A stretch of 64,000 nt of DNA from Nitrospiria bacterium. Lineage in GTDB: Bacteria; Nitrospirota; UBA9217. A model generated the notes under the pieces. It was not told the origin of the DNA, made no database searches, and saw only the letters and a list, made by a program, of their open reading frames with translations. Location of the stretch: NCBI GenBank assembly GCA_919902495.1, contig CAKKRC010000012.1:71865-135864 (forward strand). The letters run 5' to 3'. Positions 37,832 through 37,860 of this stretch are shown in pieces. Each line of letters begins with the position of its first letter. Position 1 is the first letter of the stretch. The translations under genes were made by a program, and so were the position numbers.

Positions 37832-37860
37832 TTGACATCCTTTCAGATCAGGCATATATT
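37832..37860 (+). promoter_or_regulatory. consensus sigma70-like promoter cassette TTGACA-17-TATATT, copy 1
   Basis: cgttgacatcctttcagatcaggcatatattc; homologous cassettes at 58905-58933 and 62853-62881. Confidence 0.55.

Follow-up and report, generated by a model that had tools for sequence, protein, structure and literature searches.

A short promoter-like cassette occurs three times in a 64-kb stretch of DNA from a Nitrospiria bacterium (64,000 nt of contig CAKKRC010000012.1; the whole stretch is called the window below), and we analyzed its parts, its relatives in other genomes and the genes behind it. Protein matches placed the organism in Nitrospirota, close to Dissulfurispiraceae, and ERR3858137 contains the sequence of the window. 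The sequence TTGACA-N17-TATATT was found at positions 37832-37860, 58905-58933 and 62853-62881, in all cases on the plus strand. An earlier note on this DNA had reported three repeats at these places, and the report was borne out: the pattern TCGTTGACATC-N7-ATCAGGCATATATTC has exactly three matches in the window, compared with none in 100 shuffles. A chance origin of the three copies was ruled out by this result together with the rarity of the hexamer pattern, as only four sites in the 64-kb window have at most one mismatch to TTGACA-N17-TATATT and three of them are the cassette. With a hidden Markov model (HMM) of the cassette, no fourth copy was found in the window, and sequences intermediate between the family and promoter-like sites of the ordinary kind were few.

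Over 49 nt, copies 2 and 3 have 94% identity, with similarity running a few nt beyond, while copy 1 shares 75-76% identity with the others (76% with copy 2) and differs from copy 2 in the upstream arm and at the free spacer positions. The description of the cassettes as nearly identical therefore holds for copies 2 and 3 but not for copy 1. The claim of a perfect sigma70 consensus was likewise too strong, since the -10 hexamer TATATT matches TATAAT at 5/6 positions and both hexamers together match at 11/12 in all three copies. The spacer is exactly 17 bp in each copy, and the -10 hexamer lies 86, 107 and 92 nt from the start codon in copies 1, 2 and 3, respectively.

The three cassettes and their predicted target genes

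The upstream arm of copy 1 (37793-37831, plus strand) aligns with the family upstream consensus ..gtATTC.t.a.cgcatacCC.taaAATACCCattCGacatcg and ends in a 17-nt box, ATACCCCATCGCTGTCG (37815-37831), which is preceded by a degenerate ATCCCC repeat. The core (37832-37863) consists of the -35 hexamer (37832-37837), TC, seven free nucleotides, the block ATCAGGCA (37847-37854), the -10 hexamer (37855-37860) and CAC. A predicted 5΄ untranslated region (UTR; 37864-37945), with a transcription start expected at about 37867, holds GGGTCCGCCAATAA, which is related to the leader motif of other copies; homology to orthologs begins only at 37920 in this leader, and its fold is no more stable than those of shuffled sequences. 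The predicted target is an SPFH/Band 7 (flotillin-like) gene of 673 aa (37946-39967, plus strand; Pfam PF01145, E 8e-23). The sequence ggttcgaacc at 37777 was considered as a remnant of a tRNA or tmRNA gene and rejected, as ARAGORN and Rfam show only the tmRNA at 27514 and the stretch aligns with the family arm.

Copy 2 is also on the plus strand, and its arm (58866-58904) begins 11 nt past the stop codon of a dihydrofolate reductase (DHFR) gene. It comprises the box ATACCCTTTCGGCATCG (58888-58904) and a core (58905-58936) with the -35 hexamer at 58905-58910, ATCAGGCA at 58920-58927, the -10 hexamer at 58928-58933 and CGT. Downstream lies a leader element (58942-59003, plus strand) of the class described below as class ii, which was supported by nhmmer (E 2e-7) and by a covariance model (51.5 bits, E 1e-9), and the leader fold has z = -2.26. 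The predicted target is a 198-aa gene (59040-59636, plus strand) in a stretch of 47.5% G+C; its product has a hydrophobic N-terminus and is probably exported.

In copy 3 (plus strand), the arm (62826-62852) consists of the 10-nt sequence ATACCCTTTC (62826-62835) and the box ATACCCTTTCGGTATCG (62836-62852). The 10 nt are a tandem duplicate of the arm start, with ATACCCTTTC occurring at 62826-62835 and again at 62836-62845. The core (62853-62884) has the -35 hexamer at 62853-62858, ATCAGGCA at 62868-62875, the -10 hexamer at 62876-62881 and CGT. A DUF4145 gene (62973-63626, plus strand; Pfam PF13643, E 4e-12), with GAGGA before its ATG at 62973, is the predicted target.

A constrained cassette family in Nitrospirota

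We scanned species-representative genomes with the pattern TTGACA-N9-ATCAGGCATATATT and obtained 76 loci, about 65 of which lie in more than 25 metagenome-assembled genomes (MAGs) of Nitrospirota, with up to 10 exact copies per MAG. The Nitrospirota loci share the core and a 17-nt box just upstream of the -35 hexamer (aATACCCatTCGacatcg). Hits outside the phylum on short contigs (L004, L009, L020 and L076) carry the full family arm, and these contigs are probably mis-binned. The arm is absent from another eight hits, which resemble chance matches or ordinary promoters. A phage origin was also considered, but the four identical viral contigs that match the core have neither box nor arm and are thus unrelated.

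When the Nitrospirota copies were anchored on the -35 hexamer, conservation without gaps was observed from -27 to +32, with the consensus aatacCCatTCGa.atcg TTGACA Tc..c.tga ATCAGGCA TATATT CgT. Positions that the search pattern did not force are conserved as well, namely the box, the TC after the -35 hexamer, the tgA before ATCAGG and the CgT after the -10 hexamer. Spacer positions 9-13 carry no information, and seven spacer positions are free overall. Many copies also have a looser distal arm, ..gtATTC.t.a.cgcATACCC.taaAATACCC.., which includes a second, degenerate copy of the box start.

A second scan, of metagenomes, left the spacer free (TTGACATC-N15-TATATTCG) and gave a bimodal set of 120 hits: about 30 had at most three mismatches to ATCAGGCA, and the rest had about six mismatches on average and were random-like. 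Within the close hits, the letters of the motif, in order, are A (86%), T (82%), C (57%), A (79%), G (82%), G (86%), C (75%) and A (93%), and many of them have an ATACCC-type upstream box by eye. The block adjoining the -10 hexamer is therefore a real, although not invariant, part of the family, because it is kept in a scan that leaves the spacer free, and in other lineages the family has more members than the exact 14-mer of the first scan retrieves. Variant copies in other loci also have the 17-bp spacing, which is set by the search pattern in both scans. The earlier view of the repeats as a distinct module that is promoter-like, with constraint on both flanks and spacer, was thus supported, in that the module recurs in many Nitrospirota species, is co-oriented and keeps AtcAGGCA. 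In the papers searched, neither the core 14-mer nor a Nitrospirota promoter of this kind was found, and the family appears to be previously undescribed.

For 59 of 68 copies (approximately 87%), a same-strand open reading frame (ORF) of at least 90 aa starts no more than 600 nt downstream, usually 40-250 nt from the -10 hexamer. The nearest upstream ORF, in contrast to this bias, is co-directional in 33, divergent in 22 (approximately 36%) and absent in 6 of 61 copies. The downstream genes are unrelated to one another and encode GGDEF/EAL/PAS proteins, MurJ, an LpxC-receiver (REC) fusion, patatin, VTT/DedA proteins, BrnT toxins, cytochromes c, methyltransferases, UPF0182 and BaxI. A hydrophobic N-terminus was predicted for 27/59 downstream ORFs, compared with 14/54 upstream ORFs, and the G+C content is lower downstream than upstream (0.49 versus 0.52, P = 0.025).

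We further compared copies within and between genomes. Identity at unforced positions of the arm was 0.43 within a genome versus 0.39 between species, identity at unforced spacer positions was 0.40 in both comparisons, and the nearest neighbour was in the same genome for only 5/52 copies. A recent intragenomic burst of repeats was therefore ruled out, as copies within a genome are no closer than copies of different species. This similarity within and between genomes, together with the position-specific constraint, suggests that the copies are old and under purifying selection, and argues for an old family held by such selection at each locus. No consistent terminal inverted repeats were found around the three copies, and homology between copies stops at varying points. 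A repeat derived from a miniature inverted-repeat transposable element or an insertion sequence (IS) was rejected on these grounds, given the missing terminal inverted repeats and recent within-genome spread.

In pairwise comparisons of 300-nt flanks, many copy pairs were homologous on just one side of the cassette, either upstream or downstream. In the downstream-only pairs, the genes are orthologs from different species that have retained the cassette (for example, L021/L059, L045/L070 and L023/L052). For the flotillin-like gene of the window, six orthologs with 80-92% nucleotide identity were found; the shared span is only 37920-39977, beginning 26 nt ahead of the ATG and ending 10 nt past the stop codon, the cassette is absent at all six and the neighbours are different at each. 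The 198-aa gene has two orthologs (74-75% amino acid identity), which lie in other neighbourhoods and have no cassette. Both genes (37920-39977 and 59040-59636) behave as single-gene units, in which homology stops no more than about 30 nt from the start codon and about 10 nt from the stop codon. A comparison based on gene calls only, with a relative whose DHFR gene (folA) is 89% identical, showed that the gene before DHFR (DNA alkylation repair) is conserved and that the genes after it differ, so synteny is broken where copy 2 sits.

Judging from these comparisons, associations between cassettes and genes arise and disappear over short time scales. The earlier suggestion that the module is mobile stands only in this sense: the pairing is evolutionarily labile, but there are no terminal inverted repeats and within-genome copies are not closer to each other. 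Re-pairing may occur by movement of the cassette to genes, by placement of genes behind cassettes or by recombination of dispersed copies. No integron-like recombinase was seen among the Pfam-scanned neighbours in the window and related loci, and no RYYYAAC/GTTRRRY sites were seen by eye at either end of the flotillin unit, although the search for recombinase and sites was not systematic.

Insertion sequence, leaders and other repeated elements

Some of the upstream-only pairs form a group with up to about 240 nt in common, which correspond to the 3΄ end of a 426-aa transposase gene of the ISNCY/IS1202 type (NCBIfam ISNCY_2, NF033594; 397 bits, E 1e-118). The IS, which is not present in the window, is about 1.4 kb long, begins with TGTAATGGCAAA and finishes with TTTGCCTTGACA; it has TGT...ACA termini (TGTAATGG...CCTTGACA) and two subterminal 18-nt repeats per end. 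Its insertion point is exactly between the box and the -35 hexamer, and the box is duplicated: perfect direct repeats of 16 nt (L042, IS at 5675-7066) and 17 nt (L003, IS at about 4861-6272 on the minus strand) each correspond to the box, and the right-hand copy abuts the -35 hexamer. The same junction and orientation were observed in L009 (IS at 75-1486), L005 and L129, giving at least five independent loci, and decayed remnants of the right end were found in L012, L015, L026 and L059. In L155 the IS has the opposite orientation, at a doubtful cassette copy. The right end, which abuts the cassette, itself terminates in an outward-facing TTGACA. Because the insertion duplicates the box, box and -35 hexamer stay adjacent, and the roles of promoter and IS target are thus compatible. 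In the IS1202 family, the ISTde1 subgroup is defined by TGT ends together with direct repeats of 15-17 bp (bioRxiv 10.1101/2022.12.17.520857), and the IS at the cassette resembles it in both features. The cassette IS is also similar to the ISAba32 subgroup in that it inserts with a set orientation and at a constant distance from one particular site, with one direct repeat between them (bioRxiv 10.1101/2022.12.17.520857; PMC10132070); it differs in its 16-17-bp direct repeats (as in ISTde1), in that the target is a promoter cassette rather than a Xer site and in having its right end next to the target.

Tandem box duplicates occur in only 5/66 loci, and tandem repeats of the box were rejected as a general family feature. 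The duplicates in L016, L040, L050 and L003 look like scars of IS insertion, because full tandem duplicates match the 16-17-bp target duplications of the IS; that the 10-nt duplicate at 62826-62835 in copy 3 is a partial scar of this kind is a possibility. In L026 (about 2040-2110, minus strand), L003 and L023, the right end of the IS contains a nested hairpin insert of about 70 nt (GAGCATAACAGAATC..GATTCTGCTATGCTC), which may be a small mobile element.

The leaders downstream of the -10 hexamer sort into several classes. Rfam 15, applied to the window and 18 loci, gave nothing above the gathering score except tmRNA, tRNAs and a group II intron, and only noise around copy 2 at E up to 10; accordingly, no known RNA family was matched in the leaders. 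The largest class (class ii), which includes the leader of copy 2, was recognized by a 44-nt profile in 30/115 non-redundant leaders at E ≤ 1, and in 24 at E < 0.01. The element starts about 10 nt past the -10 hexamer, at a roughly constant distance, with TACCGTGAGTGGTtTGGCAtgTTCATTGCTAAACTcGATAACAc, and its centre matches the sigma54 consensus TGGCAC-N5-TTGCW. The sequence TGGCAY-N5-TTGCT (strict GG-N10-GC) was found 13-33 nt past TATATT in 8/68 copies, compared with about 0.6 expected. The GG-N10-GC feature is intact in some copies, for example in L025 (TGGCACATTCATTGCT); in copy 2 (58957-58975, GTGGCTTCGTTGATAAGCC), the spacing and the -12 GC are lost and the hairpin is kept.

Folding of the same stretch gives a 9-bp hairpin and, downstream of it, one or two more (z from -2.2 to -3.4). 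An element of about 65 nt, in which a GATAAC...GTTATC hairpin follows the sigma54-like hairpin, was seen in copy 2 and 23 other leaders (for example, L082 6703-6767 and L025 232-296). RNAalifold on the whole leader predicted no pairs, and covariation of hand-set helices was not above shuffles on MAFFT alignments; it exceeded shuffles only on the alignment fitted by the covariance model, mainly in the second helix, where it is modest and possibly biased by the fitting. A leader peptide in the class-ii leader was rejected, as inspection showed that the reading frame is not kept between copies. The class-ii element may be either a sigma54 promoter or an RNA structure. Another motif, GGGKCYRCYCAATAA, occurs at the 3΄ side of the leader in about 10/61 copies, and copy 1 has a related form.

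Several further elements were observed in the window. A CT/GA-rich palindromic repeat family (CCTCTCCCC..GGGAGAGG) occurs at 35308-35397, at 37546-37752 (just upstream of copy 1) and at 55401-55472, in two intergenic regions and in frame in an ORF for a transketolase-like protein (54427-56478), in which its translation is a linker (..SPLRERIRGEGGIIFGEGKREG..). Three unrelated genes (radical SAM, transketolase-like and DNA alkylation repair) have another upstream element in common, which consists of three CTTTGCG repeats and, after them, AGAGAAAGCCGT. It was found at 35917-35973, 54324-54380 and 56607-56663, directly ahead of these genes or at their annotated start, and may be another common regulatory site. 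The tmRNA gene (27514-27863, tag ANNELAYAA) is followed by a drop in G+C content and by defence-type genes (28000-31500), including those for a PIN protein and a TOTE-type AEP primase-helicase fusion (29015-31414); the region 28000-31500 probably represents an island whose integration site was the tmRNA gene. A 300-nt direct repeat with 91% identity (44802-45101 and 46191-46490) duplicates the 5΄ end of an hrpB-like helicase gene and brackets a zeta-toxin/AAA_33 gene at the edge of a low-G+C region (40-46 kb), and may represent the ends of an integrated element.

A candidate promoter module and alternative readings

Strong sigma70 promoters can carry accessory elements, namely an UP element, an extended -10 and a discriminator, as in E. 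coli rrn P1. The cassette is similar to rrn P1 in its hexamers, which are close to consensus, in the 17-bp length of its spacer and in conserved blocks that lie at -60 to -40 and on either side of the -10 hexamer. It differs in that its box is not A/T-rich throughout, that GGCA rather than TGn precedes the -10 hexamer, and that the 65 bp of the cassette stand before unrelated, often accessory genes and not only stable-RNA genes. We consider it fairly probable that each copy is a strong promoter module of the sigma70 (housekeeping) type and that the family to which it belongs is specific to a Nitrospirota clade. Its parts would be the 17-nt box at about -57 to -41, the consensus -35 hexamer with TC, the 17-bp spacer ending in AtcAGGCA, TATATT and the CGT discriminator. 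RNA polymerase would start about 7 nt past the -10 hexamer, near 37867, 58940 and 62888, and produce 5΄ UTRs of about 80-100 nt for the SPFH protein, the probably exported 198-aa protein and the DUF4145 protein. The additional constrained positions would be contacts of the polymerase (extended -10, or the C-terminal domain of the alpha subunit) or of one shared regulator. The family would be old and held at each locus by purifying selection, and the gene behind a copy would be exchanged quickly, most likely by recombination or by gene insertion at or near the cassette. The sequence family, its position-specific constraint, the orientation bias, the labile gene pairing and the IS targeting are observations; transcription, promoter strength, the identity of a binding factor and the origin of new cassette-gene pairs are what we infer from them.

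Several points weigh against this interpretation. The constant positions of the first scan were imposed by its search pattern, and the metagenome scan, in which the hexamers were fixed, checks this constancy only in part. The cassette is also a specific IS target and marks breaks of synteny, so it could be, or could also be, a recombination-related site. In about one quarter of the copies a sigma54-like element follows after 23 nt, which would place the cassette where enhancer or IHF sites lie. Finally, the box is partly G+C-rich, unlike a classical UP element.

We then weighed the alternatives, beginning with two that are compatible with a strong sigma70 promoter. The box and/or AtcAGGCA may bind one dedicated factor at an otherwise ordinary promoter, and the copies would then define a co-regulated, possibly cell-envelope regulon; this overlaps with the promoter interpretation and differs in the role of the extra positions. 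Such a regulon is a possibility that we put forward tentatively. The constraint outside the hexamers is position-specific, the box lies where class I activators and response regulators bind, and the downstream products lean toward membrane and exported proteins such as MurJ, LpxC, DedA, SPFH, patatin and BaxI. However, this bias is modest and the functions are mixed (toxins, GGDEF, methyltransferases and DUF4145), and no candidate regulator gene is linked to the copies. As to the repressor site that the earlier note suspected in the spacer, the conserved block abutting the -10 hexamer could equally be an RNA polymerase contact, and the seven other spacer positions, being free, cannot form a shared operator. 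Three unrelated TTGACA-N17 promoter-like sites in the loci have GTCA before the -10 hexamer, and just upstream of the tmRNA gene (27493-27506) TCAGGCAATTATTC resembles the TCAGGCATATATTC of the cassette, with no TTGACA at the right distance. These likenesses hint that GGCA before the -10 hexamer could be a general promoter feature in these organisms. The other compatible alternative, which we regard as rather doubtful, is a mobile or recruited promoter module or expression dock, in which the cassette and part of the leader were placed before genes, or genes behind it, by recombination or a site-specific process. It would account for the flotillin-like and 198-aa orthologs that have other neighbours and no cassette, the synteny kept upstream of DHFR and lost where copy 2 sits, the many copy pairs homologous on one side only, the clustering of copies (three in 25 kb of the window and three in 8 kb of L040) and the slightly lower G+C content downstream. 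On the other hand, terminal inverted repeats, flanking direct repeats and a linked recombinase were not found, copies within a genome are not recent duplicates of one another, several cassette-gene pairs are kept between species, and the tested genes shift neighbourhood even without the cassette, so their mobility need not depend on it. A stronger form, in which cassette and leader serve as an expression dock that brings single genes, moving horizontally and lacking promoters of their own, under the control of one strong and possibly co-regulated promoter and is also a site for the IS1202-family transposase, seems unlikely to us; such a dock would be functionally similar to the Pc/attI of an integron, but has no integrase and is dispersed in the chromosome.

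The cassette might be a recombination or transposition site (an attachment site, a Xer-like site or a mimic of an IS end) that resembles a promoter by coincidence, as suggested by the IS insertions at a fixed position and mostly in one orientation at no fewer than five independent loci, and by the TTGACA at the right end of the IS. Target specificity in the IS1202 family was found only for the ISAba32 subgroup, a relative that targets Xer sites (bioRxiv 10.1101/2022.12.17.520857). Nevertheless, we judge this very unlikely: the hexamers are at consensus and 17 bp apart in every copy, a spacing set by the pattern in the scans, the copies are strongly oriented toward downstream genes, inspection revealed no dyad symmetry like that of the Xer 11-6-11 arrangement, and the insertion leaves the box beside the -35 hexamer. 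The cassette might instead be the upstream control region (about -95 to -50) of a -24/-12 promoter, with the role of an enhancer, of an IHF site or of a sigma70 promoter turned off upon sigma54 activation. The excess of TGGCAY-N5-TTGCT, the roughly constant distance of the class-ii profile and a partial match, in a by-eye comparison, of AATCAGGCATATA to the IHF core WATCAANNNNTTR are in line with this; resemblances to IHF, Xer/dif and integron sites are, by eye, only partial. However, the element is missing from three quarters of the copies, copy 2 has lost the -12 GC and the sigma54 spacing but retains a hairpin, the stretch can also be folded into hairpins, and covariation exceeds shuffles only on the model-fitted alignment. 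We consider this possibility highly improbable. Tandem sigma70 and sigma54 promoters exist in E. coli glnAp1-glnAp2, and the cassette is similar in that a sigma54-like -24/-12 follows a sigma70-type promoter in about one quarter of copies; it differs in the much shorter distance (about 42 nt between the predicted starts), in the degenerate form present in the window and in that the element may be an RNA hairpin.

Regarding dispersed promoters, the nearest concept in the literature is that of putative mobile promoters (PMPs; Matus-Garcia, Nijveen and van Passel, NAR 2012), which are sequences with high similarity over at least 50 nt before non-homologous genes of one genome, and whose movement is unexplained (summarized in PMC3575422). 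Some PMP families are reported to be shared between taxa, and the PMPs were mostly pairs that were found by overall similarity (PMC3575422). Under the PMP definition (at least 80% identity over at least 50 nt, from -150 to -50, before non-paralogous genes), copies 2 and 3 qualify with 94% identity over 49 nt and a few nt more; relative to the start codons they span about -150 to -100, and the 198-aa and DUF4145 genes are unrelated. The cassette differs from PMPs in being a large multi-species family whose members are alike only at constrained positions and include no recent duplicates. The Correia elements of Neisseria, ERIC and REPIN (cited in PMC3575422) are dispersed intergenic repeats with terminal inverted repeats or palindromes and target duplications. 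The cassette would share with them the ability of a dispersed intergenic repeat to supply neighbours with a promoter, which is predicted here, but neither terminal inverted repeats nor target duplications were seen around it.

Promoters are normally too short and variable to be recognized as a family across species, and here about 65 bp are kept with hardly a letter changed before unrelated genes of many uncultured Nitrospirota. If the cassette is a true promoter, it would provide a ready-made strong promoter and a readout of what the polymerase or a global regulator recognizes in a phylum with almost no genetics, it would mark a set of genes that are possibly co-expressed, and it would be a natural case of promoter-gene re-pairing. 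The IS targeting would extend target specificity to a subgroup (ISTde1) that had been reported without it, and together with the possible docking role it could raise the interest of the cassette further.

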